A stretch of 64,000 bases of DNA from an uncultured Chloroflexia bacterium (GCA_963727315.1 CAVSFE010000002.1:407723-471722); one strand, 5' to 3'; shown: positions 11,448 through 34,003, numbered from the stretch's first letter. The notes: a model not told the origin generated them from the letters alone. Numbers and translations: made by a program.

Positions 11448-11524
11448 GGCGCATTCGTCTAGCGGCCTAGGACGCGTCCCTCTCAAGGACGAGATCACGG
11501 GTTCGAATCCCGTATGCGCTACCA
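11448..11524 (+). tRNA. tRNA-Glu (anticodon CUC), CCA encoded
   Basis: Manual cloverleaf: acceptor GGCGCAT/ATGCGCT, D arm GTCT..AGGAC, anticodon stem CGTCC/GGACG with loop CT-CTC-AA, T arm ACGGG-TTCGAAT-CCCGT, discriminator A plus CCA. Confidence 0.9.
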
Positions 11525-11526
11525 AT
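11508..11526 (+). repeat. direct repeat copy 1 (attL-like core) TCCCGTATGCGCTACCAAT
   Basis: It covers the last 17 nt of tRNA-Glu plus 2 nt and is identical to 33985-34003. Confidence 0.85.
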
Positions 11527-11534
11527 GTAAAAAT

Positions 11535-11581
11535 AACCCCCTGTTTTGTAGCTGTTTCAGCCGGACAGGGGGTTTCTTTTT
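11535..11581 (+). terminator. rho-independent terminator after tRNA-Glu
   Basis: AACCCCCTGT - 20-nt loop - ACAGGGGGTT, followed by TCTTTTT. Confidence 0.6.
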
Positions 11582-11586
11582 AGTGT

Positions 11587-11607
11587 TTTGCTAACCATTT
11601 GCTAACC
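11587..11607 (+). repeat. two tandem TTTGCTAACC motifs with 11-nt period, at the island left arm
   Basis: TTTGCTAACC-A-TTTGCTAACC. A near-identical pair lies at 33846-33865 in the same orientation. Confidence 0.6.
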
Positions 11608-12383
11608 AACATATTCGATTGTTTGACTTAATTGCTTGATTAACGTTATTGCCTTTTGTAAATCAACGGTAGTAGACTTAAAGCCTGATTCCTGCCATTC
11701 GTTAGATGTAAAATTCTTTAAATCAGATAGTTTATCGCTAGGTACACCCGCATATTCAGGAGTAACTGTGTAGAAAAAAGACTAATAGATAATGTTTCCT
11801 CTAAATCAAGCAGGATTGATATTTAGTCAGGGCTTAATCTTGGATGAAAGGCATCAAAAAAAACTAAAATACCATTATGAGCATTGGTAATCTGCGTAGC
11901 GAGGGACTTCCATCCTTTAGTGTCTAGGTTTCGCACACGCTGGGGAATCATCGGAGAGATAACATTTTCAGATACGATAATCATCTCTTTATGAACATCA
12001 TTTAAATTCGCAGAATTGGATATACGTTCTTGGAGAACATTAAAACTTATACCCAGTCCATTCCGAATACTGGTTATTATAGAATTCAGTAATATCTCCA
12101 GACGATTTGAAATTCTATAATCAGTTGATTTCCATTTTTGCTCCTCATGCCACTTAAGAATCCAAGCGACATAGGAGACCGTAACAACTATACCTAATAT
12201 TTCGGTTGAAAGGTTTTACTTCTATCTTAATTCCGATAATACGAGTGAAATTTTAGGATGACTTAGAGAATAACCCAAACTGGAAATACTAGTTGTGGAA
12301 ATAAAGTGTTGGCATATAAACATCCAGAACCTGATAGAACGGTATGAACTTGAGAACTTCAATCCAGATGTTCAAATATATAA

Positions 12384-14024
12384 TTACTTTTTATGTTGAA
12401 TGCTGGAAAGAGCATCATTCAGACTGACATTAAGTTCGAGCCAGTTGTTGGGGTCGATTTCATTGCTCAGGACCATCTGGTCGTGCACTTTTACGATGCC
12501 GACGTTTACCCACATTTCTTTAACGTAGTTCTGGAATTCCGTCCACATTTGTTTCGCTTTATTGAGGTCAAGTTCCTGGGTCAGGGCTTGATAGAGCTCG
12601 TCGGCTTTAGGGTCGTTCGCGGTGCCGTGCCAACCTGCGGAAGTATATATGTTGCCCGATTGGTAGATGGCGTTAGGCGCCGCAGTATATGCGAACGGTA
12701 AGATATCACCGATGGCTTTCTCTCTTTCATCGGTAAAAATTCCCGCAAATAACAAACGCGACCACACTGCGGATTCGAGAGTAACAATATTGGTCTGGAT
12801 ACCGATATCTGTCCAGTATTTTTGCAGTATTAGCGCGACATCAGGTATCCAGCCGCCCGACGTGATAGGTGTCCAGACGCCGCTGGACGTGATATAAATA
12901 TTAATTACCGGGTCGGCGAATTTATCTGGATACCCGGCTTCTGCCAGTAATGCCCTGGCTCGGGCAGGGTCGTAAGGGTCGGGGGTCCAGGACGGGTCCC
13001 ATCCCCAGCTATTTTCATCCATGAAAAAGCGGCCGCCTGGTTCGGCGAAACCTTTGAAATAGGTGTCGCAAAGCTCCTGCCGATTGATAGCGTAGGATAG
13101 TGCCTGGCGAACCCTTTTATCGGATGTAGGCCCTGTTGTTAACCAGGTGTACTGAAAACTTATGGTTAGTACGTTAGAGACAGGCGATGACTTTGATGCA
13201 TAACCTTCGGAGCTTAGCTTAGCAACCGTGTCAAAAGATAAACCTGTGACGATATCGAGATCACCTCGCCGGAGCATGGCAAAGCGGGTCGCCTCCGAGG
13301 GTATTTCATAGAATACTAATCTCTCGAAAGCGGGTGTGCGTTTCCAGTGGTGCTTCACCGCTTCGAATTCACACACATAATCCGGCGTCAAACTGATGAA
13401 TTTCCACGGTCCCGTCCCAATCGGATGAGCGCGGAAATATTCTATGCCATTTTTTTCGATGTAGTCTTTGGGCAGAATCCTTAAAAATGCGAAAAGTGTA
13501 ATGAGTTGGGGTTCGGGTGTGTTGGTGCCATATACATAGGTATAGGCGTCCGGGGTTTCATCAGAAGCAAAATTCATGCGTAAATAGTATGACCAGGGAT
13601 TGGTCGAATTTTCCGATTTAAACCGATCTAGAGAAAACTTAACATCGGCGGAAGTAAGCGGGTCACCGTTATGGAATGTGATACCCGGGTGGATTTTAAA
13701 TATCCATGTCTTGCCATCCGGGCTTAAGGAGTAATTATCAGCCAGTTCGCCAATAGCATTTCCCTGGGAGTCAAAGGTTAAGAGAGAGTCACACATGGCA
13801 TAGCCGAAGATAGACTCCATCTGGGTGGGGTCCATTGACTCAAAAACAAAATCGGCCATACCGATACGCAGTGTGCCGTACTGGGCTGCTTTAGTCGGTG
13901 CTGCCGAGGGATTATTAGAGGCAACGGGACTGGAAGCCGGTCCATTGCAACTGATAAACCATACTATTATGACTAGAAGCGAAAGGATTCCGGATATATT
14001 TTTTATCTGTTTCGTCATTTGCAT
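12384..14024 (-). CDS. ABC transporter substrate-binding lipoprotein, family 5 (peptide/nickel, DppA/OppA-like), orphan
   Basis: Signal peptide with a lipobox-like ...VWFISCNG. GTLRIGMADF...LLTFDSQGNAIGELADNYSLSPDGKTWIFKIHPGITFHNGDPLTSADVKFS is the SBP_bac_5 pattern. No permease or ATPase gene is adjacent. Confidence 0.8.
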   Translation of the reverse strand: MQMTKQIKNISGILSLLVIIVWFISCNGPASSPVASNNPSAAPTKAAQYGTLRIGMADFVFESMDPTQMESIFGYAMCDSLLTFDSQGNAIGELADNYSLSPDGKTWIFKIHPGITFHNGDPLTSADVKFSLDRFKSENSTNPWSYYLRMNFASDETPDAYTYVYGTNTPEPQLITLFAFLRILPKDYIEKNGIEYFRAHPIGTGPWKFISLTPDYVCEFEAVKHHWKRTPAFERLVFYEIPSEATRFAMLRRGDLDIVTGLSFDTVAKLSSEGYASKSSPVSNVLTISFQYTWLTTGPTSDKRVRQALSYAINRQELCDTYFKGFAEPGGRFFMDENSWGWDPSWTPDPYDPARARALLAEAGYPDKFADPVINIYITSSGVWTPITSGGWIPDVALILQKYWTDIGIQTNIVTLESAVWSRLLFAGIFTDEREKAIGDILPFAYTAAPNAIYQSGNIYTSAGWHGTANDPKADELYQALTQELDLNKAKQMWTEFQNYVKEMWVNVGIVKVHDQMVLSNEIDPNNWLELNVSLNDALSSIQHKK

Positions 14025-14192
14025 CTTCTTCGGGTTTAAACGGAGATGATTGACTGATTCTGGCTTATTTTATTCTCTTACCTTCCTCTATTCAAGCGTC
14101 TCTGGTAAAGAAAATAAAAAAGCGGGGAGCCCCGTATGGGACTCCCCGCGGTATGCTACGCCGTCTATGAGTAATAGCCTCGGGTTGCCTTT

Positions 14193-15053
14193 TTAATCAA
14201 GCCACCATATCGTGTATGAATAATTACTTGATTGATTTATTGATTCTTTCGTCAAAATATAGTCATCATTTAAGGTACCACGCAAATTAGCCAGTTCCCC
14301 GGTGCCGCTGATGATAGTGCCCCGGATTGATTCCCAGCCGGTCATGTAATCCGGCGCGTCCAGCTTACCCCACATGACTTTATAAAGAGTGAGGGTGCCT
14401 GATTTGCCGTCCACCGTTCCCGTGAAGGTATCATCCGCGATTCTCATCCAACATTCCCCTGTACCGAGGTTCATCTCGAATTTGTTGACACCTTCCACCT
14501 TGCACTCAAATGTCCCGTTTAACTCGTAGATGTCCGTCTCTATATGCGTGTAAAACATTTCGGAGAAATCAATATTTCTATCGGCCATGTTAAAACCGAT
14601 CGGTATCAAAGTACCCGATGCGCTTGTATTAGTCGTGGTGGGGGATTTTATAGCGACGAAGAGCGAGTAGGTCCAGTCGAATACTTCGTGAGCTTTTCCG
14701 CTTGTCTTGAAGAGAATCACAGAGGAGCCTTTCGCCAGTCCTTTGAAGGTCCATGTCTGCTTTGGAGTACCGCCTGGCGCAGATTCGCTTCTATAGTCGA
14801 CTTTCTCTATCAACGAGGGATTGATGATTTCGGGTGGCTCCTCCCAGGCGCGATTAGAAGCTTCATCCGAGTTGAGACTTACGGTAAAAGAGTCCCCGGG
14901 AGCTATTTGTACCTCACCAGCTTGGTGCGCCTGCTGGAGCCATGTGTCCGGGGCTGGTACCGGCACCGTTTTTGTAGTCGGTGCCGGTTTACCGCAGCCA
15001 GCCATAAGAACGCAGATTACTATGACGGTCATTATATTAAATATCTTTTTCAT
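14193..15053 (-). CDS. lipoprotein with a chagasin(I42)-like N-domain and a DUF3224-like C-domain
   Basis: Lipobox VLMAGCGK. IAPGDSFTVSLNSDEASNRAWEE...TWTFKGLAKGSSVILFK resembles the chagasin-family pattern. The C-terminal ...TFTGTVDGKSGTLTL...ISGTGELANLRGT resembles DUF3224. It is a paralog of the next gene. Confidence 0.5.
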   Translation of the reverse strand: MKKIFNIMTVIVICVLMAGCGKPAPTTKTVPVPAPDTWLQQAHQAGEVQIAPGDSFTVSLNSDEASNRAWEEPPEIINPSLIEKVDYRSESAPGGTPKQTWTFKGLAKGSSVILFKTSGKAHEVFDWTYSLFVAIKSPTTTNTSASGTLIPIGFNMADRNIDFSEMFYTHIETDIYELNGTFECKVEGVNKFEMNLGTGECWMRIADDTFTGTVDGKSGTLTLYKVMWGKLDAPDYMTGWESIRGTIISGTGELANLRGTLNDDYILTKESINQSSNYSYTIWWLD

Positions 15054-15103
15054 TTTTCCCTCCGTACCAGCCAGCTTTTTCAGGGCCTTAACACTTCCGG
15101 TCT

Positions 15104-16147
15104 TTATTTTATGAACCAGAATATGACTGTCGTAGGTGAAACGAGCTCATACGTGGGTGGGTCGGTGGCCGGCTCGACTGGGGTAGCGTGAACCTCAAAT
15201 TGCGTGGTGCCGCGCAGGTTAGCCAGTTCCCCCGTACCGCTAACAATTGTCCCGGCGTCCTCAATCCAGCTTGTTTTACTTGCTTTAAAGTTGTTTCTGG
15301 CGTCAAGTAATCCCCAGGCGAAAGCAATGCGGGTATAGCTGCCGGCTTTATCGTTCACCGTTCCGGTGAAGGTTTCCTGCGCCCTTTCCCAAAATTCACC
15401 GGTCACGAGGTTAGCTTCAAGCTTGATTACTTTGTCACTCTTTCCTTCCAGCGCCCCGTGCACGTCACTGGTAGTATGTACCATTTCGGTATAGACGTAC
15501 TCCGTCATATCCGTATTATTTTCGGTTACTTGATAACTTGTCTGTGTAAAGGTGGGCTCTAACGAAAAAGTAGTGACCGGCGAAGATGTTACCCCCACGG
15601 ATAGTGCGTATGTAAATCCCCGCATTTCATAGTTCTTGTCGGTCTTGAAATAAATAAGGCAGCCGCCTTCGCTCAGAGCCTTGAAATTCCAGGTCTGCCA
15701 TTCAGGTCTATTCGCCGAAGAGTTTTTAAAGCTAGCCAGCTCCACCACGCCCTGGTTGATAATTTCCGGTGCTTCGACCCAAAACTGGTCATTGGCTCTT
15801 TCAGTAGACAGATACACACTGAAGGTATCGCCCGGCGCCAGCCAAATTTCACCTCTTTGATGCCCGTCCTTCAGAAAAACATCCTGGGTTATCACCAGAG
15901 AATTCGGACCGGCCGTTGGCGTCGGGACTCCTGTCGAAGTGGGAGTAGAGGTGGGTGTTAGAGATGTGGTTTGAGTCGGGGTAAGCGTTGGAGTCGCAGA
16001 AGGAGTCGGAGTGGGCGTAGGAGATGCGCTTGACGTCGGCGTAGTAAGTGTAGGAGTTAATGTGGCGGTTGGCGTCGGTTTAGAGCAGCCAGCCATGAAA
16101 GTACAGATCATCAGGACTATTATTAATATGACGTATAGCTTTTTCAT
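15104..16147 (-). CDS. paralogous lipoprotein with a Thr/Pro-rich linker, a chagasin-like domain and a DUF3224-like domain
   Basis: Lipobox TFMAGCSK. A ~60-aa TP-rich linker (PTPTATLTPTLTTPTSSASPTPTPTPSATPTLTPTQTT...) follows. Then LAPGDTFSVYLSTERANDQFWVE...TWNFKALSEGGCLIYFK and ...VSGTGELANLRGT. Confidence 0.5.
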   Translation of the reverse strand: MKKLYVILIIVLMICTFMAGCSKPTPTATLTPTLTTPTSSASPTPTPTPSATPTLTPTQTTSLTPTSTPTSTGVPTPTAGPNSLVITQDVFLKDGHQRGEIWLAPGDTFSVYLSTERANDQFWVEAPEIINQGVVELASFKNSSANRPEWQTWNFKALSEGGCLIYFKTDKNYEMRGFTYALSVGVTSSPVTTFSLEPTFTQTSYQVTENNTDMTEYVYTEMVHTTSDVHGALEGKSDKVIKLEANLVTGEFWERAQETFTGTVNDKAGSYTRIAFAWGLLDARNNFKASKTSWIEDAGTIVSGTGELANLRGTTQFEVHATPVEPATDPPTYELVSPTTVIFWFIK

Positions 16148-16204
16148 TTTTCTCCTCTTAATTTTTTAAAGATTATCTTTGTCTTCAAATTCAACTTCTT
16201 GCCT

Positions 16205-16474
16205 TCATAGTGACACCTCCCTACTTCTTTTGGCATTGTTTTGCTCAGCTGAAACGTAAATCAAAGGGAGCCCCAGTTTCGAGAGTTGTGACAGCACCCC
16301 GTAAAGAGCGGCCTGGTCCCGAAGTAGACCACTCAAGATCGTGCAACCGTCCGCGGTATGGGTGATTTTAAGGCCTCCTAACCAGTCCGACCAGTTCCGG
16401 TCGATTTGCCCCTTGACACGGATTTCAACTTTTAGCATGCCTATACTCTGTTTCAATGTTACAAGCGATTTCAC
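16205..16474 (-). CDS. small conserved hypothetical protein, paralog of 21834..22121
   Basis: MLKVEIRVKGQIDRNWSDWLGGLKITHTADGCTILSGLLRDQAALYGVLSQLSKLGLPLIYV aligns with the paralog from M13. The likely true start is therefore 16438. Confidence 0.6.
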   Translation of the reverse strand: MKSLVTLKQSIGMLKVEIRVKGQIDRNWSDWLGGLKITHTADGCTILSGLLRDQAALYGVLSQLSKLGLPLIYVSAEQNNAKRSREVSL

Positions 16475-16479
16475 CCGGT

Positions 16480-16503
16480 GTAATCAATCTGGAGATTGAT
16501 TAC
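16480..16503. promoter_or_regulatory. 24-bp near-perfect palindrome, candidate operator
   Basis: GTAATCAATCT-GG-AGATTGATTAC has 11-bp perfect arms. It sits 42-65 nt upstream of the probable start (16438) of the small gene and downstream of the LuxR-type regulator. Confidence 0.5.
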
Positions 16504-16615
16504 AGGATTGATTTTAGTCACGCCAGAGTAAAGCTGAGGGTTGTAAGTTGAAAATCACAGAACAGGCCTGAGTTATTAAAAAGAAAGATGAATTACTGTG
16601 GGGATAAGCGGGCAG

Positions 16616-19246
16616 TTATATCAAACCAAGCTCTTGAGCCCGGACGATAGCCTGAACGCGGTCTTTAACATTCAGTTTCTCGAAGAGGTGGTGGACATGG
16701 GTCTTGGCGGTACTCAGGCTAATGAGCAATTTTTCCGCAATTTGTTGATTTGAATAGCCGGTGGCCAGTAGTCGCAGTACCTCTATTTCGCGTCCGCTTA
16801 GTATTTCATGGGCCGGGGAAAGTGTAATTTTTCCTTTTATCAGCTTGTGTCGTTCCTCTTCTGCCTCGATAATGGTGAGTAATTTAGCGGCGTACCCCGG
16901 TTCTATTTTCTGAGAGATGGCCTGCCGGAGTAGCTGCGCCAACGCCATGCCTTCGTCGACAAAGGCACGGATGCAGCCTTCAGGTTTGGCCATCGCGAGA
17001 GCATCGCTCAAGAATCTCAAGGCCTCGGCTGGCGTGGATGACTCCATGGCCTGGCATATGTGCACGGAGATTAGATATCCATTTAAAGCATCTCGGGCAA
17101 ACATTTCTTCGTCCGCCTGAAGTCGTTCCGCCCAGTCGTTTTTCCCTCTTCGAACATAGAGGGCACGTATAGCGATAAGGGGACCATCGGGGGGTAAAAA
17201 CACTTCATATTCTGAAAGCTTGTCAAGCCACCGAGAAACGGCGTCCGTATTCTTCTGTGCTATCGCTAACATGACATGGTAAGCCGCGTTGCGCGCTCGG
17301 TTAAACGGCGAAATACCGGGTTCGGTGGTTAATAACCGGTCGGCTTTTTCCATAGCTTGCTTCGCCCCCAGAAAATCCCCTTGGGCTAGACGTATACGTG
17401 CCATCTGGAGATAGGTTAAATCCGGAAGTCCAATATCCCCTAAGGGCCGATTCAATTCAATGGCTCTTTCCAGATGAGATGTAGCCGCTCCCAACTCGTT
17501 CCATTCATAAAGAACAAAGCTTAAAAGGATATGAGCATAGGTTGTCGAGTTTGATCGCTCATCCAGGTCTATTACCTGTCGATACATCTTGGCTGCTTGA
17601 TTGAGTTTACCTCGTACCATGGCAACCAGTCCCAGGAAAGTGAGTGGGAGAATAACGTCCTGATTATTCCCTATTTTACGGAAAGAATCGTAAGCCTCGG
17701 CTAGCAGCGGCTCGGCTTCTGCATAAAGATATCTGTTGATACAGTCCATTCCTACCATAAGGCATACGTAGCTACGCGTGGCTATATCAGCTGGCGGCAG
17801 CAGCGCTAGCGCCGTCTTGCCGTATTCCATGATAAGGTCGGTATCCCCTTTAATTAAGGCCTGGAGAGTCCGTAAAGCGGCGACACTGCCCTGAAGTCGA
17901 TTATCCTGAGTTGACTCTTCGAGATATTTTAAAGGGGCTTCGGCAGCGTTGAGCTGGCCTGTTCCCAAAAGCGACCTAATATACAGCAAATAAATGGGTA
18001 TGTTGGTGCGTAGAGTTTCCTCGGGTATTTGCTTCAACCAGTTAAGCAGTATTACCCACTCGCCCCGCCCGGTCAGACGGGGGTCATTAATGAGTCTCAT
18101 TGCCGTTTCCCAGTCTTTAGCCTCCAGTGCGTGATGGATGGCATCTTCCGAAAATTGGTGTTCCTCATGCCACTGACACGCAAGACGGTGCCATCCAGAT
18201 ACTTTTCCTAGACCGAACTCAATTTCCAGCTGGTGTCGCAGGAGTTCGGCGAAGAGATGCTCATAGCGGTACCATTGCCGCGACTCGTCCAGTGGGACGA
18301 TGAAGAGGTTGTCGTTCTCAAGCCTGAGAATCATCTCCTGGCTGTCATGGCGTCCGGTGACAAAATCACACAAGGGAGCGGTTAACCGTTCCAACACCGA
18401 AGTCTTTAAAAGAAAGTCCCGTATTTCGTGAGGCTGTTGCTTTAGCACTTCTTCCATGAGATAGTCCATGATATAACGCTGGCTACCGGTGAAGCTGGTT
18501 ATAAATCGTCTGACATCCGGCTGACGACGTAAGGAAAGCGCTGCCATTTTGAGTCCCACCGCCCAACCTTCAGTGCGCGCATTTAAAGTGTCGATATCAC
18601 TAATAGCAAGACTGGGGCTTTTCAATTCTTTAAGCAAAGTAGCCGCTTCATCGTGAGTGAAGCGCAAATCATCTGAACTTATTTCTAACATCATCCCTTT
18701 ACCACGGTAATGTACCAGGGGTAAAGGAGGGTCAATTCGAGATGCGATTATCAGGTGCGTCTTTTGAGGCATATGTTCGATTAAATAATTGATGCCGCTA
18801 TGTACTGGCATTGATCTTATAAAATGATAGTCATCTAGGACAATCGCAGACTGGAATTGAACGTTGTCCAGTTCATTGATTAATATGGTTAGCAGCGGTT
18901 CGATGGGCGTAGGTTGCGGCGAACGTAACAGAGCCAGAGGCCTTTCCCCGAAGTCAGACTGCAGGGTCTTTATGGCAGCTATTAAGTACTCCCAGAATCG
19001 GACGGGTTCGTTATCCCCTTCGTCTAGTGAAACCCAAGCGGTACATATTTTCGGCTGGCTCTGGCGTGCCCATTCGCTTAAAACCGTCGTCTTACCAAAA
19101 CCAGCGGGGGCTGAAATGAGAACGAGGTTATAAGCAAGGCCTTCTTGTAAACGTTCCAATAAGCGTGGGCGTGGTACCAGTTGTGTTCGGACTATAGGGA
19201 TATTGAGCTTAGTTTTTAATAATGACGTTTCCACATTCGCCTTCAC
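16616..19246 (-). CDS. MalT-like STAND ATPase / LuxR-family transcriptional regulator
   Basis: 876 aa. Walker A is ISAPAGFGKTT. A long TPR-like middle region follows. The C-terminal LuxR/GerE HTH is LSGREIEVLRLLATGYSNQQIAEKLLISLSTAKTHVHHLFEKLNV. Confidence 0.85.
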   Translation of the reverse strand: MKANVETSLLKTKLNIPIVRTQLVPRPRLLERLQEGLAYNLVLISAPAGFGKTTVLSEWARQSQPKICTAWVSLDEGDNEPVRFWEYLIAAIKTLQSDFGERPLALLRSPQPTPIEPLLTILINELDNVQFQSAIVLDDYHFIRSMPVHSGINYLIEHMPQKTHLIIASRIDPPLPLVHYRGKGMMLEISSDDLRFTHDEAATLLKELKSPSLAISDIDTLNARTEGWAVGLKMAALSLRRQPDVRRFITSFTGSQRYIMDYLMEEVLKQQPHEIRDFLLKTSVLERLTAPLCDFVTGRHDSQEMILRLENDNLFIVPLDESRQWYRYEHLFAELLRHQLEIEFGLGKVSGWHRLACQWHEEHQFSEDAIHHALEAKDWETAMRLINDPRLTGRGEWVILLNWLKQIPEETLRTNIPIYLLYIRSLLGTGQLNAAEAPLKYLEESTQDNRLQGSVAALRTLQALIKGDTDLIMEYGKTALALLPPADIATRSYVCLMVGMDCINRYLYAEAEPLLAEAYDSFRKIGNNQDVILPLTFLGLVAMVRGKLNQAAKMYRQVIDLDERSNSTTYAHILLSFVLYEWNELGAATSHLERAIELNRPLGDIGLPDLTYLQMARIRLAQGDFLGAKQAMEKADRLLTTEPGISPFNRARNAAYHVMLAIAQKNTDAVSRWLDKLSEYEVFLPPDGPLIAIRALYVRRGKNDWAERLQADEEMFARDALNGYLISVHICQAMESSTPAEALRFLSDALAMAKPEGCIRAFVDEGMALAQLLRQAISQKIEPGYAAKLLTIIEAEEERHKLIKGKITLSPAHEILSGREIEVLRLLATGYSNQQIAEKLLISLSTAKTHVHHLFEKLNVKDRVQAIVRAQELGLI

Positions 19247-19422
19247 CCCTAACTTATTGGGGATTACAGGCGGAGTTATTATAGCATAAATAGAATGAAA
19301 TTGAACAAAACCGAGATATGTTTAACCCTGTGTGGTTGCACAAAAGTCAGAAATGTTCAATTATAATTCGGCGTATTACACAAAACGTCAAGTTGTTCGG
19401 TACTGCTCGGTGGAGGTCGATC

Positions 19423-19617
19423 TCAGACTTTTACCTCTTTAACTCGACCAACATGACCGTCTTCTAAACGGACTTTGATACCATGGGGGTGAACAGGTGA
19501 TTTGGTCAAAATGTCTTTGACTATCCCTTCGGTTAGTTTTCCAGACTGCTGGTCTGTCTTCAATACTATTAAGACCCGCAAGCCCGGTCTTATGTTAACA
19601 CGATCTGTGCCATTCAT
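19423..19617 (-). CDS. YwbE family protein (DUF2196)
   Basis: 64 aa. ...GLRVLIVLKTDQQSGKLTEGIVKDILTKSPVHPHGIKVRLEDGHVGRV is the typical YwbE pattern. Confidence 0.7.
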   Translation of the reverse strand: MNGTDRVNIRPGLRVLIVLKTDQQSGKLTEGIVKDILTKSPVHPHGIKVRLEDGHVGRVKEVKV

Positions 19618-19935
19618 ACTGCCAACTCCATCTTTTCCATCATCGTACCATATCTAGAAGAGGAAGCCTTGTCGGTGTTAGAATGTCTTGTTTACACGCA
19701 CTACTTTTGGTCGGCGGGTCAGAGTGCTAGCCTCAGGTAACAATGCATCTTTTTGTGCAGGCAAAGATTAACCATTTCGATGAAAAGTGCAATCATACTT
19801 TTTAGCTATTTGTTTAACCTCGCCGTATCATATAAAAAGCCATTTTGTCAACCATAATTACCTTTGAATTCAGACCAGGGTATTTATTATCCCCCCATTT
19901 CAGCCTTTGGAGTGCCAATAGGTTATAATGTGCAT

Positions 19936-20940: not shown

Positions 20941-21179
20941 ACCCTACAGCACGAAGCAGGCTAGGGCTCGTGGTTTAGTAAAGATCAACGGATTATTAGC
21001 TGCACAATTAGATGGATTGTGACATCTAATAATTACTATCAATAGCCGCCGTAGTTCGAGTCTAATATGATGGGTATTAGGGAGTCAGGAGATACTGCAC
21101 CCATGAATTTGTGATGTCCTAGCCCGTGATGGTGATTAATCCTGGGTGGAAAACCTCTTAAAGTCCTGCGGCGGCCAGG

Positions 21180-21689: not shown

Positions 21690-21751
21690 CTCCCTGCTCC
21701 CTCTTATCATCCCTCATACCCCTTAAAATCAATCCCGGAAATCTATCCTAA

Positions 21752-21770: not shown

Positions 21771-21833
21771 ACGTGCGCCTTTTTCGTTGTTAACATTAAC
21801 GCAAAGGTCGTTGCGCGCGAGGGTGAACACAAG

Positions 21834-23522: not shown

Positions 23523-23563
23523 AATGGCTTATCATAAGGCCTTAAATTATCAAAAACAGTTGG

Positions 23564-25326: not shown

Positions 25327-25346
25327 TGATTTGCCTCCTCTAAACT

Positions 25347-26785: not shown

Positions 26786-27199
26786 CTATCCTTTGCTTTT
26801 CATGGCTAAGGGTCCCCAGTTTTTTATCTGCTCAGTCATTTCATCGGTGATGGCGAGAAACCTATCGCCCTCCGATGGAGACACCCACTCCAAACGCAAC
26901 CGCCCATCTTCAATGCCCAATTGAGAAAGCACCTTTTTCAACAGGGCGATACGCCGCATGGTCATATAGTTCCCTTCGGAATAATGGCAGTCTCCGGGGG
27001 GGCAACCGAGAACCAGGATGCCGTCGGCACCAGATGTAAACGCCCTCAGAATGAAGTCGGGTTCCACCCGGCCGCTGCACATCACCCTGATAGGGCTGAT
27101 ATTGGCATTGAACTTTATAGGTGAAGCACCGCTGGCTTCGGTAATCCGGTAGGAACACCAGTTACACAGAAAGGCAACGATCTTTGGTTCAAAGCTCAT
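26786..27199 (-). CDS. MvhD-like (methyl-viologen-reducing hydrogenase delta subunit family) iron-sulfur protein, copy 2
   Basis: The ATG at 27199 gives MSFEPKIVAFLCNWCSYRITEASG...VMCSGRVEPDFILRAFTSGADGILVLGCPPGDCHY. The track ORF extends upstream into metV. Confidence 0.75.
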   Translation of the reverse strand: MSFEPKIVAFLCNWCSYRITEASGASPIKFNANISPIRVMCSGRVEPDFILRAFTSGADGILVLGCPPGDCHYSEGNYMTMRRIALLKKVLSQLGIEDGRLRLEWVSPSEGDRFLAITDEMTEQIKNWGPLAMKSKG

Positions 27200-27225
27200 A
27201 CCAATACTCCACTGGAGCGTACCGT

Positions 27226-27900
27226 TTATGTCCCCCCCGATTTCTCTTGAGAGGTTATGCGGCGGGGCCCACCAGCATGAGAGGTGCTCCAATCTCGTAG
27301 CGGCTGGATTTCATCCAGCATTTCCAATTTACCCCGCGCCGACAGGCGGTCAATTATCGCTTGCCAGGCACAAGGTATATCAGGTGATATTTCACACTTC
27401 CCTTTGGCTGACCCGCCACATGGCCCGTTCAGCAAACTCTTGGCACATCTTGTTATGGGACAGATGCCGGCCGTCTTATCGAGAATGCAGTTCCCACAGC
27501 CAGAACACCGCTCTACCCATACGCCCTCCGTCTCTGGCATCCCCATGCACACTGTATCAAGCCCGGGAAGAACCGAGATGGCAGCGAATTTCTCACTCAG
27601 CGCTTGTACTCCTACACCACAACCCAATGACAGTATGGCATCCTTTTCCTTCACCTTATCCCCTATCGCATCGAGAAATTCCCATTCGCACTGACGTTCT
27701 ACAGTATGTTCTGAGAAGACCCGGTTTTTGCCCGATATCCTGTCGGCCATGCGGAGAGATGAAGCGAGAATCCCGACCTCTTTGTCCCCGCCGCTAAAGC
27801 AAATAGCCACACATGTGCCGCAGCCAAGTACCAGAATATTCTGATAACCTTCAATCATTGCCTTGATATTCTCAAAAGGTTTTGCTTTGGCAATAATCAT
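27226..27900 (-). CDS. metV: MetV-like protein (methylene-THF reductase C-terminal-domain / Cys-rich partner of MetF)
   Basis: NILVLGCGTCVAICFSGG...LSLGCGVGVQ...ERCSGCGNCILDKTAGICPITRCAKSLLNGPCGGS...CAW matches the acetogen MetV architecture as I remember it. Confidence 0.7.
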   Translation of the reverse strand: MIIAKAKPFENIKAMIEGYQNILVLGCGTCVAICFSGGDKEVGILASSLRMADRISGKNRVFSEHTVERQCEWEFLDAIGDKVKEKDAILSLGCGVGVQALSEKFAAISVLPGLDTVCMGMPETEGVWVERCSGCGNCILDKTAGICPITRCAKSLLNGPCGGSAKGKCEISPDIPCAWQAIIDRLSARGKLEMLDEIQPLRDWSTSHAGGPRRITSQEKSGGT

Positions 27901-27901: not shown

Positions 27902-28324
27902 TCAACCCCCCTTTATCGGGCTAGGTCCTAATTTTTTTATTCTCTCGGTCATTTCCCGGGCAACTTCGGAAAATCGTCCACCCTCCGCTGAAGACATGAA
28001 GAACATCTCCAGCCTGTCCTTGCCCAGGCCAATTTTTTCCAGAAGATTTTTAGCGCGCGCTACTCTTTTCTCAGCGCGAAGGTTTCCCTCAACGAAATGG
28101 CAGCCACCTTTGAGACATCCGGCGACAAAAACGCCGTCAGCGCCCTGCTCGAAAGCCTTCAAGATATAGAGAATATCAACCGTGCCTGAACAGGGGAGCT
28201 TAACAATCTTGATATTAGTCGGGTATTGCAGTCGCATCACCCCGGCGAGGTCGGCCGCGGCATAAGCGCAGTAGTGGCAGCTGAAAGCCACAATCTCCGG
28301 TTCAAACTGTTCGGCAGAGGTCAT
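27902..28324 (-). CDS. mvhD: MvhD-like iron-sulfur protein, copy 1
   Basis: FEPEIVAFSCHYCAYAAADLAG...KLPCSGTVDILYILKAFEQGADGVFVAGCLKGGCHF. Confidence 0.8.
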   Translation of the reverse strand: MTSAEQFEPEIVAFSCHYCAYAAADLAGVMRLQYPTNIKIVKLPCSGTVDILYILKAFEQGADGVFVAGCLKGGCHFVEGNLRAEKRVARAKNLLEKIGLGKDRLEMFFMSSAEGGRFSEVAREMTERIKKLGPSPIKGG

Positions 28325-28475: not shown

Positions 28476-30131
28476 TCACGGCCACGCCATCTTCGTTAAT
28501 ATAGGGTACATCATAGGGGCAGACGCGAACACAGGTAAGACAGGCTTTACACTTTTCCGCATCCACCTGACAGACAGCGCCACCGACCTCCAGCTGTTGT
28601 TTCGACAGGATAGTTGTGGCTCGCCCCGCGGCTGCCTGCGCCTGTGTATGGTCTCATCAATGAACTTCGGGGAATGGGCCGTGCCACACAGGTATATCCC
28701 CTCCGAAGCAAAGTCAACCGGCGCCAGTTTGACATGGGCCTCGTGGAAGAAACCTTCCTCAGTCAGCGGCACCTTCAGGATTTTGCTCAGTTCTTCATTA
28801 CCTTCAGCAGGGACCATGGGCGTTGCCAGGACCAGAAAATCAGGTGATAGGACAAGCTCCTCACCCAAGATCGGGTCGAAGGCTATAACTTCGAGCTTGC
28901 TATCGATGGCGTTAACCTTGGGTAATTTATCATCGGAATAGCGAATGAACACTATGCCTTTTTTGCGCGCTTCGGTGTAGAGTTCCTCTTTGAAGCCATA
29001 GGTCCGGACGTCTTTGTAGAGTATATAGATATTTGCCTGCGGACTCATTTCTTTTATCTTCAGGGCATTCTTAATGGCAACGGTACAACAAACCCGACTG
29101 CAATACTGGTAATTCTTGCCGGGAGGCCGGGCACATAGAATCATAGCTATATCTTTAGCCGATGCTATTTCTTGGGGAGACGCCACGATTTTCTCTTCAA
29201 GGTCGCTCAAAGTAAGCACCTTTTCATTCTGTCCCAGCAGGTACTCGCTACCCCGGTATTCTTTGGCTCCCGAGGCGACAATGATTACTCCGTGCTCGAC
29301 CAACCGCTGTTTCTGTCCGTTTTCACTGGCGAGGGTGGTTTTAAAATTACCGACAAAACCATCTGTCTTGACCACAACTGTATCCATAAGGACTTCAATC
29401 AGCGGATTTGCCTTGACTCGCCTTTTTAAGGACTCCAGGAAATCCTGGGGGCTCTCCCCGTTAAGAGACAGGTGAATCTTCCTTGTCCAGCCGCCCAGCT
29501 CCTTTTCCCTTTCCACCAGGTATGTCTTGAACCCCTGCTCGGCCAGATTGAGAGCGGCCGTCATACCGGCAACACCGCCGCCAATGACCAGAGCATCATG
29601 ACTGAGCCCCAGGGTCACCTTGTGCAGTGGCTCAAGCAGGGCAACACGGGCTACGGCCATCCGAATTAATTCTTTAGCTTTCTCGGTGGCCTTTTTAGGT
29701 TCACGCATATGGACCCACGAGCACTGGTCGCGGATATTAGCCATCTCAAAGAGGAAGCGGTTAAGTCCGGCTTCCTTTATGGTCTCCTGGAACAGGGGTT
29801 CATGAGTTCGAGGGGTGCAGGAGGCAACCACCACCCGATTAAGGTTATATTCCTTTATCTTTTCCTTTATCTTCTCCTGGGTATCCTGGGAGCAGGTATA
29901 GAGGTTTCTATCAACAAAGACTACATTTGGCAGTGTCGCGGCATAATCCTTTACCTCCGGGACATTGACGTAACCACCGATATTGATGCCGCAATGGCAA
30001 ACGAAGACGCCAATTCTCGGCGGCTCCTTAGAGACATCTTTTTCCGGGGGATATTCCTTCTCTACCGTCAGAGTGTGGCGTGACGAGGCAAGTAAAGCTG
30101 AAGAATTGGCGGCGGCGGCGCTGGCCTGCAT
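28476..30131 (-). CDS. HdrA-like flavoprotein, C-terminal third of a single large gene (true extent about 28396..32812, with frameshifts near 28645 and 30258)
   Basis: GVFVCHCGINIGGYV...ASCTPRTHE...ALVIGGGVAGMTAALNLAEQG... The last ~55 codons of the track ORF are out of frame. The shifted frame reads QAQAAAGRATTILSKQQLEVGGAVCQVDAEKCKACLTCVRVCPYDVPYINEDGVAVIEVAKCRGCGICAAECPQ, with a stop at 28396-28398. Confidence 0.8.
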   Translation of the reverse strand: MQASAAAANSSALLASSRHTLTVEKEYPPEKDVSKEPPRIGVFVCHCGINIGGYVNVPEVKDYAATLPNVVFVDRNLYTCSQDTQEKIKEKIKEYNLNRVVVASCTPRTHEPLFQETIKEAGLNRFLFEMANIRDQCSWVHMREPKKATEKAKELIRMAVARVALLEPLHKVTLGLSHDALVIGGGVAGMTAALNLAEQGFKTYLVEREKELGGWTRKIHLSLNGESPQDFLESLKRRVKANPLIEVLMDTVVVKTDGFVGNFKTTLASENGQKQRLVEHGVIIVASGAKEYRGSEYLLGQNEKVLTLSDLEEKIVASPQEIASAKDIAMILCARPPGKNYQYCSRVCCTVAIKNALKIKEMSPQANIYILYKDVRTYGFKEELYTEARKKGIVFIRYSDDKLPKVNAIDSKLEVIAFDPILGEELVLSPDFLVLATPMVPAEGNEELSKILKVPLTEEGFFHEAHVKLAPVDFASEGIYLCGTAHSPKFIDETIHRRRQPRGEPQLSCRNNSWRSVALSVRWMRKSVKPVLPVFASAPMMYPILTKMAWP

Positions 30132-30246
30132 TACCGTCTCAGGGATGTCCTTGGGTGCCTGAAAAACGCCGGTGACGAAGATGCCTGGACTTGATGTCTC
30201 GACCGGTGAAAATTCTCCGGTCTGGCAGAACCGGTATTTATTGAGG

Positions 30247-31470
30247 TCAATGCCCAGTCTCTCTGGCCAGTTTTACGCCTTTCGCGGATGGCTGGAATCC
30301 TACCGAAAGAACTACCAGGTCGAATTCCTCGTTCTTTAACGTTCCATCTTCTTCAGCAAACCTGAGAAGTAGATTCCCGGTGGCTTTGACCTCTTCGATA
30401 TTAAATACCCTTGACCTCACAAAGCGGACTTTATGTTCTTGTTGCGCGCGATGGTAATACTGCTCATATCCCTTCCCGAAGGTCCTCATATCCATGAAAA
30501 AGATGGTTGTGTCAATCTCCCGACCGGCATGTTCTTTAGCAATGATAGCCTGTTTGATGGCATAGGTGCAGCAAACTGATGAGCAGTAGCCGGCATTGAT
30601 ACTCTCATCCCTGGAGCCAACACATTGAATCCAGGCAATCTTTTGGATGGGTTTCCTGTCCAAAGGCCTGATTAACTCACCTTTAAAAGGCCCGGAAGCG
30701 CTCAGCATGCGCTCAAACATGATGCTGGTAACGACATTCGGATATTTGCCATAGCCATAGTTGGTCAAGGCCGAAGGCTCATATTCGTCAAGTCCAGGAG
30801 ATAGGATGATAGAGCCGACGTTAATATCTACGTATTCATCCTGCATCTCATGGTTGATGGCGTCGGCTTCGCATCTTTCCTCACACTCCCGGCACTCAAA
30901 GCAGCCCTCTATCTGCGAGGCTAAGCAGCGTCTTGCCTCTCTCCGGGCCGCGGCTATAGAATAGACCTGCTCCACCTCTTTAAAGCCTTTGATTCGTCTC
31001 TCTGGCTTCAGCTCTTTACCTTTCACCCTGTTCTTCGAAGGGAAGCGCTTTTTAAGGGCAACAATTTCATTTTTACTGAGTTCTTGCGGGGCTCGGGTAT
31101 CATCTTTGGAGGTTAAAGGCTCTCCTTTGAGATATTCATCGATGGAACGCGCCGCTTTCTTCCCGGCGGCGATAGCCTCAATAACCATGGCCGGACCGGT
31201 AACCACGTCTCCGCCGGCAAAAATACCGTTAATATTGGTAGCTAAAGTGGCTTCATTGACGGCGATTGTTCCCCGCGCGGTTACTTTCAAGCCATTTTTC
31301 CTGGCATAATCAATATCTGGAGCTTGACCCAGAGCCGGAATAACGGTATCAACATCGATGAAGAATTCAGAGCCTTCAATCGGGACAGGGCGACGACGAC
31401 CGCTGTCATCAGGCTCCCCGAGATTCATCTTAATACACTCGATCCTGGTGACCCTGCCTCCTCTCGGCAA
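30247..31470 (-). CDS. middle fragment of the same gene: end of the GltD/NfnB-like NAD(P)H module plus the HdrA core
   Basis: GRVTRIECIKMNLGEPDDSGRRRP...FAGGDVVTGPAMVIEAIAAGKKAA (GltD-like), then CFECRECEERC, CVGSRD...YCSSVCC (HdrA-like). The start and end are both created by frame changes. Confidence 0.8.
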   Translation of the reverse strand: MPRGGRVTRIECIKMNLGEPDDSGRRRPVPIEGSEFFIDVDTVIPALGQAPDIDYARKNGLKVTARGTIAVNEATLATNINGIFAGGDVVTGPAMVIEAIAAGKKAARSIDEYLKGEPLTSKDDTRAPQELSKNEIVALKKRFPSKNRVKGKELKPERRIKGFKEVEQVYSIAAARREARRCLASQIEGCFECRECEERCEADAINHEMQDEYVDINVGSIILSPGLDEYEPSALTNYGYGKYPNVVTSIMFERMLSASGPFKGELIRPLDRKPIQKIAWIQCVGSRDESINAGYCSSVCCTYAIKQAIIAKEHAGREIDTTIFFMDMRTFGKGYEQYYHRAQQEHKVRFVRSRVFNIEEVKATGNLLLRFAEEDGTLKNEEFDLVVLSVGFQPSAKGVKLARETGH

Positions 31471-32812
31471 TTACCCGGGTGGGGTTAGCCAGAAACATGA
31501 TATCGATGCCTTCTTCCTCGGCGGCCCTGACCTCCTCATCGCTGGCCGGCATCTCCGAACGGGAACGCCGGTAGATGACTTTCACTTCGGCGCCCAATCT
31601 CCTGGCCACGCGGGCGGCATCCATCGCCGCATTACCGCCGCCAATAACTGCCACCCTTTTACCGACATCGACTTTTTCTCCCGAGTTGACTTTTCGCAGA
31701 AATTCGACGGCATGGACGACGCCGGCAGAATCCTCTCCGGGGATACCCAGCCTCAGACTTTGATGGGCGCCTGAGGCAATGAAAATAGCTTGATAGTCCT
31801 GCCTGAGCTGTTCCAGCGTTATCTCTTTGCCTACTTTAACCTTCGTCTTTATGTTTACCCCTAATTTCTCGATATAGCCTATATCCCTGGCGAGTATGTC
31901 CTTGGGGAGTCTATATGCAGGTATTCCGTATCTGAGCATGCCCCCTGGCTCAGGCAAGGCCTCATAAATGGTCACCTCATAACCTTCGAGGGCCAGATCA
32001 TGCGCTGCCGCCAGACCCGCCGGACCACTCCCGATGATAGCCACCTTCTTACCATTCCTGGTTATCTGAGGGACTTCGTAGTTCTCAATATCAATTTGGT
32101 CGGTAACGAATCTTTTTAAAGCACGAGAAGCAACAGGTTCATCAAGCTGCCCGCGATTGCAGGCTTCTTCACAGGGCGCGTAGCAAACCCGACCGCAGAT
32201 GGCTGGTAGAGGATTGGTACTCCTGATCAAGGCATAGGCTTCTTTGAACATTCCCTCGGCAACCAAAGCCGCGTAACCTTGAACATTCATGTGGATGGGG
32301 CAGGCATCCTTACAAGCGGCATGACAGGGTCTTTCTTCTCTTTTATCGATGGCGTATGTCCTGGGTACTGCTTGAAGATAAGGTGTATAAATGGCTTTCC
32401 TGGTTCCCAGCCCTTCGTCAAAGGCACTCGGCATGATAATAGGGCATCCCTCGGCACATACTCCGCAGCCGGTACATTTAGCACCGTCAACGAATCTGGC
32501 CTTTTTCTTAACAGAAACAGTAAAATTCCCGGGCTTACCCCGGACACCAAGGACTTCTGAATATGTTAGAAGGTCGATGTTAAGATGTCTCCCGCACTCC
32601 ACCAGTTTGGGAGAGAGAATACACATAGAACAATCATTGGTGGGTAGAGTTTTGTCAAGCTGAGCCATCACGCCGCCAATGGCGGGGGAATCCTCTACAA
32701 GGTAGACTTTATACCCGGACTCAGCGAGGTCGAGGGCTGATTGAATCCCGCCGACACCCCCACCAACGACAAGTACCGCCCCTATTTTTTCGCTTGCCAC
32801 CGTCTTGTCCAC
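31430..32812 (-). CDS. N-terminal fragment of the same gene: HdrA N-terminus with an inserted GltD-like Fe-S/FAD/NAD(P) module
   Basis: AVLVVGGGVGGIQSALDLAESGYKVYLVE...LPTNDCSMCIL...CTGCGVCAEGCP (HdrA). Then NPLPAICGRVCYAPCEEAC, VAIIGSGPAGLAAAHDLA and VAVIGGGNAAMDAA (GltD/NfnB-like). Confidence 0.8.
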   Translation of the reverse strand: MDKTVASEKIGAVLVVGGGVGGIQSALDLAESGYKVYLVEDSPAIGGVMAQLDKTLPTNDCSMCILSPKLVECGRHLNIDLLTYSEVLGVRGKPGNFTVSVKKKARFVDGAKCTGCGVCAEGCPIIMPSAFDEGLGTRKAIYTPYLQAVPRTYAIDKREERPCHAACKDACPIHMNVQGYAALVAEGMFKEAYALIRSTNPLPAICGRVCYAPCEEACNRGQLDEPVASRALKRFVTDQIDIENYEVPQITRNGKKVAIIGSGPAGLAAAHDLALEGYEVTIYEALPEPGGMLRYGIPAYRLPKDILARDIGYIEKLGVNIKTKVKVGKEITLEQLRQDYQAIFIASGAHQSLRLGIPGEDSAGVVHAVEFLRKVNSGEKVDVGKRVAVIGGGNAAMDAARVARRLGAEVKVIYRRSRSEMPASDEEVRAAEEEGIDIMFLANPTRVIAERRQGHQDRVY

Positions 32813-32865
32813 TTTTCCCCATCCTGATTTCAGCTGGGGGCTATTCTCGATTTTTGCTGAATCTA

Positions 32866-33435
32866 TTATGCTAAAGCCGCTTCTATTGCTTGCACTATAT
32901 CCTTGTTGTCAAAAAGGCTCATGGCAATTGCCCCGGCCGGACAAGCCGCACTACACACGCCGCAGCCGCGGCACGATTCAATAACAAGGTGAACAGTATA
33001 TTTATCATCCTTTGTTTCCAGCTTAAGCGCTTCGAAGGGGCATGTTGATACACAGATACCGCAACCCGAGCATAAGTCTTCATTGATGGACAAAGGAAGA
33101 GTGTATCCTTCTTTGGTCGCCAGGTGTTTCAGGATATCCCAGACAACGGAAAACTTGACTTTCTGCGGGCAGTTTTTCTCGCATAGAAAACACTCAGAAC
33201 AATACCAGATATAAGGGCTACTTAAGACTTTATTTCGCATACCTAGGTTAAGCATCCTGACTATTTTCCTCGGGTCATGCTCGGGGTATATTTCATGAAT
33301 GGGACAGGCAGCGGTGCAGGTTCCACAGGTAAAGCAAGCAGTAGCGTCATTAATAATATCGCCAGCGGCTACCTCAAACTTAAAATTACGGTCAAGTTCC
33401 GATACTCTAACTGGCTTAGGTGCTGAAATCTCCAT
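32866..33435 (-). CDS. HdrC-like 4Fe-4S dicluster protein with an extra ferredoxin domain
   Basis: CFTCGTCTAACP...CSECFLCEKNCP (HdrC-like spacing), then CSGCGICVSTCP...CRGCGVCSAACP. Confidence 0.7.
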   Translation of the reverse strand: MEISAPKPVRVSELDRNFKFEVAAGDIINDATACFTCGTCTAACPIHEIYPEHDPRKIVRMLNLGMRNKVLSSPYIWYCSECFLCEKNCPQKVKFSVVWDILKHLATKEGYTLPLSINEDLCSGCGICVSTCPFEALKLETKDDKYTVHLVIESCRGCGVCSAACPAGAIAMSLFDNKDIVQAIEAALA

Positions 33436-33488
33436 TCAATCGCTTTCTTTCCGCATAATTGTCATCACGTCACAACTTGGTAATGAAC

Positions 33489-33517
33489 ACTTTAACTAAT
33501 TGCATTTTTCTTGTCAA
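33489..33517 (-). promoter_or_regulatory. putative sigma70-type promoter of the hdr/met operon
   Basis: On the minus strand: TTGACA - 17 nt - TAAAGT, about 50 nt upstream of the ATG at 33435. Confidence 0.4.
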
Positions 33518-33845
33518 GTTTAAACATCGGCCTTACTTTTGCGCAACTTCTCTCTTCTATTGAAGGAAATTCCATCTCTCCTACCAAGGTAAACGCTGGC
33601 CGGGGTAATAATCGTCCATTTTGTTCAACTTACAGGAACATTCGCTTGTTTTGTGTAGTGTCTGAGCCATCGCTTATTGGAGAATGGGTCCCGGCAGTTG
33701 TGGTTACACTGAAATCCACAACCATACAGTGGCTTTGTATTTGCGGATGGTATCCGTTTTTACTTTGGGTAGCTTATGCCACACGACCTACTCTATCAAC
33801 AAGGCCAGCAACTACTTATTCTTAGGGTTGATTACTTAGTAAGAA

Positions 33846-33865
33846 TTTGCTAACATTTTGCTAAC
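33846..33865 (+). repeat. two tandem TTTGCTAAC motifs with 11-nt period, at the island right arm
   Basis: TTTGCTAAC-AT-TTTGCTAAC, in the same orientation as 11587-11607 and 120 nt before the second direct repeat. Confidence 0.6.
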
Positions 33866-33984
33866 GGACTAGAAATGACTGAACAATACATAAAGGTAAT
33901 TTACGTACGAATATTTAAATTCGACAATAAAAGAAAACGACTACTCTAAACGTAAAAACACCATATGACAGAACAGATAACAAG

Positions 33985-34003
33985 TCCCGTATGCGCTACC
34001 AAT
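33985..34003 (+). repeat. direct repeat copy 2 (attR-like core) TCCCGTATGCGCTACCAAT
   Basis: Exact 19/19 match to 11508-11526. It is not part of a tRNA here. Confidence 0.85.

Follow-up and report, generated by a model that had tools for sequence, protein, structure and literature searches.

A tRNA-Glu-bounded genomic island without an integrase in an uncultured Chloroflexia bacterium, and the proposed arm-site signature at its ends

The window considered here, a stretch of 64,000 nucleotides (nt) from an uncultured Chloroflexia bacterium (GCA_963727315.1 CAVSFE010000002.1:407723-471722), contains a block of lower GC content at 11527-34003 that lies between two copies of the 3' end of a tRNA-Glu(CUC) gene. 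With a probability of roughly 0.7, this block is the product of a site-specific integration at the 3' end of that gene and is now a non-autonomous island without a recombinase, similar to a cis-mobilizable element (CIME). It is of an ordinary kind, namely a tRNA-bounded, integrase-less genomic island that is either decayed or dependent; beyond that, comparison with relatives adds evidence that tRNA-Glu is a hotspot in Dehalococcoidales, together with a portable arm-site signature that elements in Chloroflexota and Actinomycetota have in common. The repeat, the junctions, the foreign composition, the conservation of the arms across different cargos, the association of the arm motif with tRNAs and integrases, and the absence of an integrase were all observed directly.

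Repeat, junctions and composition of the block

The features that define the two ends of the block are as follows (coordinates are those of the window).

11405-11433: promoter-like site of tRNA-Glu(CUC) (promoter-like match)
11448-11524, + strand: tRNA-Glu(CUC), presumed integration target (ARAGORN, Rfam)
11508-11526, + strand: attL core, left recombination junction (exact repeat; homology of relatives ends at 11526)
11529-11585, + strand: hairpin and U-tract, tRNA terminator (inverted repeat 11529-11544 / 11565-11580; folding)
11587-11608, + strand: presumed arm-type integrase sites of the left arm, two TTTGCTAACCA units at 11-nt spacing
11609-12383: AT-rich stretch without an intact gene, at the position of the integrase gene in intact relatives
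33603-33984, + strand: right arm, conserved and non-coding
33985-34003, + strand: attR core, second copy of the tRNA 3' end, right junction (exact repeat; breakpoints of relatives)

The 19-mer TCCCGTATGCGCTACCAAT occurs exactly at 11508-11526 and 33985-34003, both on the + strand, and these remain the only two copies in the window when two mismatches are tolerated. None of 100 dinucleotide-preserving shuffles yielded such a match, and the direct repeat that the original prediction had placed at the 3' end of tRNA-Glu is thus exact and non-random. The tRNA gene itself was identified by ARAGORN and Rfam (RF00005, 61 bits), and the first copy of the 19-mer consists of its last 17 nt, including the encoded CCA, followed by AT.

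Relatives were chosen as contigs (given by L numbers) that encode close homologues of two flanking genes, MarR to the left of the tRNA and the cupin-like gene to the right of the block, and these flanking-gene homologues came from metagenome-assembled genomes (MAGs) of Dehalococcoidales and other Chloroflexota. Four contigs (L015, L016, L017 and L019) align to the window through exactly 11526, the last base of the repeat, and resume at about 41640, and the right-side alignment begins just beyond the second copy, at 34010 in L002 and L003 and at 34034 in L001. Since homology to relatives breaks at both copies of the repeat, both can be regarded as recombination junctions, in agreement with an integration at the tRNA 3' end.

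The second copy was also found outside the window. In L004-L010 and L020, it lies upstream of the cupin gene together with about 400 nt before it (window 33603-34003), at 85-89% identity, and the same 17-mer was found upstream of the cupin gene in L004-L010. The presence of the copy with its arm, upstream of the same gene, in at least eight independent metagenome contigs indicates that it is real and not an assembly artefact. The genes beyond the right arm differ (MmgE/PrpD in L004, a nitroreductase in L020, and 4Fe-4S/Hdr genes in the window), and the homology breakpoints of L004 and L020 fall at 33603 and 33638, within 35 nt.

A compositional break coincides with the repeat copies, as had been expected of an inserted block. 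GC content in 2-kb windows is 0.43-0.52 within the block versus 0.54-0.58 in the adjacent flanks, the mean GC content at third codon positions (GC3) of genes is 0.54 between the copies versus 0.70 in each flank, and the tetranucleotide distance to the flank profile is approximately doubled over 10.5-34.5 kb and nowhere else in the window.

Arm motifs, sister elements and the search for an integrase

The motif TTTGCTAAC occurs four times in the 64 kb, versus 0.41 expected, with starts at 11587, 11598, 33846 and 33857 and all on the + strand; they are grouped into two pairs of 11-nt spacing, one pair inside each end of the island. The left pair starts 62 nt past the end of the tRNA, which is 60 nt past the attL core. 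The right arm contains the other pair (33846-33865), the sequence GGACT extending to 33870, a box AACGTAAAAAC at 33949-33959, and then the core, with a distance of 114 nt between motif and attR core. A GAACGTAA box is present in many Dehalococcoidia right arms, and the right arm of the window aligns with those of L015 and L022. No Pfam or Rfam match was obtained for the right arm, and structured RNA in the arms was rejected, as Rfam finds the tRNA only. Judged from sequence, the paired GCTAAC repeats would be arm-type sites bound by the N-terminal arm-binding domain of an integrase.

Between the tRNA and the left pair, a hairpin at 11529-11580 is followed by a U-tract and sits beyond the point where homology to relatives ends. 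A simple terminator scan missed it because its loop is too long, and folding confirmed it as stable (-24.4 kcal/mol, z -4.4), which bears out the suggestion that the tRNA terminator is supplied by the insert. The hairpin loop motif TTTTGTAGCTG is common to the window and the sister elements L022 and L023, and a variant, TATTGTAGCTA, stands at its place in L069. The stretch 11609-12383 beyond the left pair encodes no open reading frame (ORF) of at least 80 amino acids (aa); at about 11830-12219 on the - strand, it contains a fragment of 130 codons without a stop, for which no match to PHROG, Pfam or the integrase family described below was found.

The distribution of the motif was surveyed with WGCTAACNNNNWGCTAACGGACT, the right-arm motif, in 185,579 genomes, one per species, which yielded 53 loci versus roughly 17 expected by chance (our own estimate). 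Chloroflexota account for 28 of the loci and Actinomycetota for 17. Most loci show one of two arrangements. In 12 of the 53, the motif is preceded by a complete tRNA (Leu, Pro, Val or Phe) whose end is 38-73 nt upstream, and most of these have a tyrosine integrase gene directly after the motif. In 22 of the 53, the motif is followed, 113-150 nt downstream, by a fragment that comprises a T-arm and acceptor and ends in CCA (background, 0.13 per locus); further loci (for example, L042 and L074) have shorter cores, as in the window. In Acidimicrobiia the integrase gene points away from the tRNA; in L027, L038, L049 and L053 it points at the tRNA. The motif keeps its position with respect to the core and not to the integrase gene, which argues for an att-arm site and not for a promoter or operator of the integrase gene.

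One integrase of the family contains Arm-DNA-bind_4, SAM-like and catalytic domains and is approximately 36% identical to Bacillus phage integrases. A left-end layout of tRNA, hairpin, two GCTAAC units and integrase was seen in L080, L027, L049 and L053, with a tRNA-Thr, a terminator hairpin and an integrase fragment in the case of L080. In L078, a related integrase is flanked by another paired repeat (two copies of TGTCCATTA), a difference that is expected if arm sites co-vary with their integrase. The proposal that the TTTGCTAAC pairs are arm-type sites has therefore gained support, as the same 11-nt-spaced GCTAAC pairs occur near tRNA ends or fragments in dozens of Chloroflexota and Actinomycetota genomes and, in intact cases, adjoin a tyrosine integrase with an Arm-DNA-binding domain. 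The GCTAAC repeats probably mark the att arms of a widespread family of tyrosine-integrase elements. No description of a (T/A)GCTAAC arm motif with an 11-nt period was found in the literature, although the motif itself was not a subject of the literature search.

Several side observations were made in the survey. All 93 closest database relatives (P0238-P0330) of the C-terminal integrase fragment of L027 (Dehalococcoidia) are at most 158 aa long, and two of them inspected on long contigs are cut by insertion sequence (IS) elements (rve; DDE_Tnp_1), so that decayed integrases beside tRNAs seem to be common in the Dehalococcoidia lineage. These relatives did not lead to any full-length parent element from Dehalococcoidales with tRNA-Glu as its target. 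Two full copies of the motif lie 87 nt apart inside a longer tandem repeat in a Bacteriovoracaceae MAG (L058, 5440-5549), and GCTAAC occurs three times in a row in Neomoorella stamsii (L064, 5392-5425), with no tRNA beside either motif in the stretches examined.

At the same tRNA site, related genomes carry other cargo of 5.5 kb, 2.4 kb and about 1.8 kb with the same kind of ends, all integrase-less; different cargo thus occupies the tRNA-Glu site, and the relatives do not all share the same 22 kb. In L015 (8555-14080), 5.5 kb of acyl-CoA dehydrogenase, PadR, FeoAB and DtxR-like genes lie between the same tRNA and a second core, and the right arm, which aligns with that of the window, consists of two AGCTAA(C) units, GGACT, an ATTTACG box and the core. 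A metagenome scan with the pattern of right-arm motif, 85-115 nt and core detected L020-L023. Among these, L022 (6081-8490) is a 2.4-kb element at the tRNA-Glu(CUC) of a different host with a single FAD-enzyme gene (FAD_binding_2), and its order is core, TTTTGTAGCTG-loop hairpin, two AGCTAAC units, FAD enzyme, two AGCTAAC units with GGACT, about 100 nt, and core. In the window and in L022, both arms of the element have the same motif variant, TTTGCTAAC and AGCTAAC, respectively.

In L069, from a further Dehalococcoidales MAG, the tRNA and left arm are 86% identical to the window over 161 nt; the alignment ends with the second GCTAAC unit (window 11608), and the flanks do not align. This locus has a T-type left arm and an A-type right arm, and no attR core could be recognised in it. 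L043, from a GC-rich Chloroflexota MAG, contains a 3.8-kb hydrolase/CoA-transferase island at tRNA-Leu(CAA), at the right end of which about 60 nt of the 3' part of the tRNA are duplicated (the first 30 nt were reported as the repeat), with the right-arm motif before it. No integrase is encoded in the L015, L022, L069 and L043 elements.

An integrase was sought in the window by four methods (Pfam in six frames, a family hidden Markov model (HMM), tblastn and PHROGs), and its absence, which the original prediction had noted, held in each. Neither the ORFs nor the six-frame translated arms matched PF00589 or PF00239, and a six-frame Pfam scan of both arms at E <= 5 gave nothing. The HMM built from the family integrases did not match the window, all tblastn hits of these integrases against it had E > 0.03, and resolvase or serine-recombinase domains were absent from Pfam scans of the island ORFs and of the six-frame arms. 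The window retains no decayed gene for integration or transfer, and no accreted element with an integrase lies within the 64 kb. Two candidates were rejected: a split integrase of the SSV type (attP inside int), as the circularised junction is crossed only by a 46-codon frame without integrase character, and the 358-aa ORF at 19864-20940, one without a Pfam match, as a recombinase, as it has a GCGPGG dinucleotide-binding motif.

The cargo is metabolic and regulatory rather than phage-like, as had been suggested. Pfam and PHROG scans of the island ORFs of at least 80 aa found only metabolic and regulatory families and nothing conjugative or recombinational, and no Pfam families of phage structural, replication or packaging genes were found in the island. 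The PHROG scan gave one weak match of unknown function, no match was obtained for the four ORFs that were compared with PHROGs out of the five island ORFs without a Pfam match, and neither of the arm patterns was found in IMG/VR; a phage origin was rejected on these grounds. Arms homologous to those of the island occur in integrase-bearing elements, and relaxase-like genes are present in some of these (L041 and L046).

Proposed mechanism, alternatives and related systems

Under the proposed mechanism, the attP of an element would have recombined with the 3' end of tRNA-Glu(CUC) in a Dehalococcoidales chromosome, presumably catalysed by a heterobivalent tyrosine integrase of the lambda/Tn916 type. 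The integration would have doubled the 17-19-nt core, restored the 3' end of the tRNA and brought in the new terminator hairpin. The predicted attB junction would read GGTTCGAATCCCGTATGCGCTACCAAT followed by AACCAAACCAACAATCTTAAAAGG, and the predicted attP junction GACAGAACAGATAACAAG TCCCGTATGCGCTACCAAT GTAAAAATAACCCCCTG. In intact relatives, the integrase gene appears directly after the left-arm repeats, and the 0.8 kb of AT-rich, gene-free DNA found there in the window may mark its former place; the integrase would then have been lost rather than never present. Movement would now require a cognate integrase, either provided in trans or brought in by an element that integrates beside the island.

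Several points weigh against this interpretation. None of the relatives examined has the empty site in exactly the form predicted, in which AATAACCAAACC and the cupin gene come directly after tRNA-Glu; other DNA occupies that position, and in L016 and L019 a 488-aa gene separates the tRNA from the distal cupin/OYE (old yellow enzyme) cluster. The divergence of the right arm from L004 and L020 (85-89% identity) about equals that of the adjacent cupin gene, which fits vertical inheritance of the arm, so that the block may be a mosaic and not one element. No remnant of an integrase is detectable in the window, which makes a lost integrase indistinguishable from one never carried, and all four complete sister elements at tRNA-Glu are integrase-less too, which is unexpected for a one-off decay. 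Two parts of the original prediction are accordingly not established: that the element is immobilised, given that both arms look intact and several sister elements lack an integrase, with mobilisation in trans possible, and that the 22.5 kb represent a single element rather than a mosaic.

In a somewhat unlikely alternative, an ancient integration has left a right arm and core by the cupin gene, the DNA up to the tRNA has been replaced repeatedly by integrations at the tRNA and deletions, and the 22.5 kb are not one element and have long been immobile. The agreement between the identities of right arm and cupin gene in L004 and L020, with different cargo adjoining in each, would be explained in this way, as would the presence in L069 of arms of two types, T on the left and A on the right, and the internal unevenness of the block (GC sub-blocks, a truncated regulator of host-like composition at 21180-21689, and an orphan binding protein); the short Dehalococcoidia relatives of the integrase fragment, at most 158 aa and IS-cut in the two inspected, show that decay is common. 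On the other hand, the deviation in GC3 and tetranucleotides is fairly uniform across the block, both arms of the window have the same motif variant, and the breakpoints of L004 and L020, no more than 35 nt apart, suggest a defined arm boundary rather than random deletions. It is also conceivable, though unlikely, that such loci are active non-autonomous cassettes of a sub-family that normally has no integrase, in which arms and exchangeable cargo are moved into and out of tRNA-Glu(CUC) by an enzyme whose gene lies at another place in the genome or on a helper element. Arms without an integrase have been kept by four elements, complete or nearly so, at tRNA-Glu(CUC) of different hosts (the window, L015, L022/L023 and L069) and by L043 at tRNA-Leu, L022 has a single gene between two arms, and the left arm of L069 aligns with that of the window despite its non-aligning flanks. 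In addition, left and right motif variants agree within the window and within L022, as expected for one attP. Such activity is, however, difficult to reconcile with the mismatched arm variants and unrecognisable attR core of L069, with a right arm that diverges in step with the neighbouring chromosomal gene, and with the truncated and frameshifted genes in the cargo; moreover, no helper integrase was identified in the 64-kb window, and no circular junction or empty site was observed.

A scenario without any site-specific event, in which the repeat matches by chance, is an artefact of assembly or arose by local duplication and the block is simply a chromosomal region that varies, is extremely improbable. 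Several frameshifted genes in the window do suggest an error-prone assembly, but the shuffles gave no match in 100, the second copy and its arm recur in the independent metagenome contigs, the junctions of relatives coincide with the repeat, and the architecture recurs in dozens of genomes, which effectively refutes it. A more speculative proposal, held to be quite unlikely, is that the window, L015, L022, L069 and L043 belong to an undescribed class of minimal, integrase-less Chloroflexota cassettes that are shuttled in trans into and out of tRNA genes. Such a class may be characterised by a left hairpin with paired GCTAAC, and a right paired GCTAAC-GGACT with the GAACGTAA box, around anything from one gene to 22 kb; if real, it would be the tRNA-based counterpart, in site-specific recombination, of integron cassettes or of hitchhikers resembling miniature inverted-repeat transposable elements (MITEs).

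An integrated but non-autonomous island of this kind has counterparts in several known systems. Heterobivalent tyrosine integrases with arm-type sites include lambda Int, Tn916 Int and ICEBs1 Int. These systems share with the window a core overlap in the 3' end of a tRNA, short repeats of the same orientation on both arms and an N-terminal arm-binding domain, whereas the window lacks an integrase, an excisionase and phage or conjugation genes. The CIME concept was defined for sites of integrative elements, both conjugative (ICEs) and mobilizable (IMEs), in Streptococcus (PMC5704250). In a CIME, too, attL and attR stem from the target gene's 3' end, integrase and transfer genes are missing, and the site is used by other elements; unlike a typical CIME, the island of the window belongs to Chloroflexota, has no conjugation or integration remnant that ties it to an ICE or IME, and has no accreted helper element.

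Closer in taxonomy are the ssrA islands of Dehalococcoides, some of which lack an integration module and were suggested by McMurdie et al. 2011 to be CIMEs (PMC3146451). They are of the same class, lie downstream of a small stable-RNA gene, and have a direct repeat of about 20 nt of its 3' end and strain-variable cargo. Their own features are the ssrA target and a serine recombinase module of the DsiB/CcrB type (DsiB/DsiA), whereas the element of the window targets tRNA-Glu(CUC), is associated with a tyrosine integrase and arm sites, and has cargo other than rdhA. In Prochlorococcus, tRNA islands built by tycheposons are arrays of tRNA-bounded remnants (bioRxiv 10.1101/2020.12.28.424599). These resemble the window in their tRNA-proximal position, partial tRNA repeats, degenerate remnants and metabolic cargo, with successive integrations pushing older elements inward; however, what defines a tycheposon is a tyrosine recombinase and replication genes of its own, none of which are in the window, and the phylum is an unrelated one.

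These results imply that uncultured Dehalococcoidales gain or swap metabolic modules at a single tRNA-Glu hotspot, in this case a redox cluster of the MetFV/HdrA/MvhD type with its own two-component regulation. Moreover, paired (T/A)GCTAAC at fixed distances from the tRNA 3' end marks element ends in Chloroflexota and Actinomycetota MAGs whether or not an integrase is present, and this signature could be useful for delimiting islands in fragmentary metagenome assemblies. If integrase-less copies are mobilised in trans, they would constitute a cargo-exchange system of wider interest.

Cargo and neighbouring genes

The genes of the island are listed below (assigned by Pfam, except where stated).

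12384-14024, - strand: orphan SBP_bac_5 solute-binding protein
14193-15053, - strand: DUF3224 protein
15104-16147, - strand: DUF3224 protein
16616-19246, - strand: MalT/LuxR-type regulator
19864-20940, + strand: FAD-oxidoreductase-like protein with GCGPGG motif (from its translation)
21180-21689, + strand: truncated MalT/LuxR C-terminus
22066-22740, + strand: SnoaL-like protein
23564-23956, - strand: response regulator
23998-24396, - strand: response regulator
24409-25371, - strand: MetF methylene-tetrahydrofolate reductase
25347-26780, - strand: histidine kinase
26786-27292, - strand: MvhD/FlpD
27226-27900, - strand: MetV
27902-28324, - strand: MvhD/FlpD
28476-30131, 30247-31470 and 31430-32812, - strand: HdrA/GltD-like flavoprotein in three ORFs
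32866-33435, - strand: 4Fe-4S protein

The cargo comprises a redox module of the MetF/MetV/MvhD/HdrA type and a two-component system, together with regulators of the LuxR/MalT type and assorted enzymes; several of these genes are truncated or frameshifted. GC3 is 0.45-0.54 for the genes of 12384-23956 with the exception of the truncated MalT/LuxR fragment of 169 aa at 21180-21689, the host-like value of which (0.68, versus 0.54 for its neighbours) hints at a mosaic origin or a captured host fragment.

The segment that follows the island contains the following features.

34004-41634: neighbouring segment of host-like composition (GC3 0.69), variable among relatives and outside the repeat-bounded block
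34036-34524, + strand: cupin-like gene (Pfam)
40546-41608: HTH_3 and Peptidase_M78 pair, ImmR/ImmA-like (Pfam)

It also encodes DUF5305, an S26 signal peptidase, a Peptidase_M73 protein (camelysin/TasA-like) and two OmpR-type regulators. The cupin gene at 34036 had been taken as the next host-like gene; it does have host-like composition, as do the 7 kb after it, but both are missing from some relatives. Specifically, 34004-41634 is missing from L015, L016 and L019, and 34520-41642 from L004-L010, while both are present in L001 and L002, and the region that is variable relative to L015, L016 and L019 is consequently 11527-41634. The 7.1 kb of 34520-41642 represent a second indel beside the island, at which no flanking repeat was seen, and a search for a third, degenerate copy of the core at the 41.6-kb boundary revealed none.

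Three cupin-like genes lie near the OYE-type reductase (34036-34524, 41636-42145 and 42072-42560), and the one on the + strand beside attR has 26% identity to one of the distal cupins, which indicates an old paralogue rather than one duplicated recently. In L002 (1221-1260), the right arm is absent upstream of the cupin gene, and ACGGTACGGCCTACCA stands at the position of the core; it matches CCGTATGCGCTACCA at 11 of 15 positions and is possibly a decayed core copy.

Several genes in and around the island are split by frameshifts, including the HdrA/GltD-like gene at 28476-32812 and two CoA-transferase genes at 1128-2332 and 4537-5770. The 551-aa piece of the HdrA/GltD-like protein has a single 1488-aa protein as the representative of its 90%-identity cluster, and the OYE-family reductase at 42573-44659, which is also frameshifted, is 696 aa long in L019. 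L015, which comes from a separate ENA assembly, is as fragmented as the window. This suggests that the split genes reflect indel errors of long reads rather than true pseudogenes.

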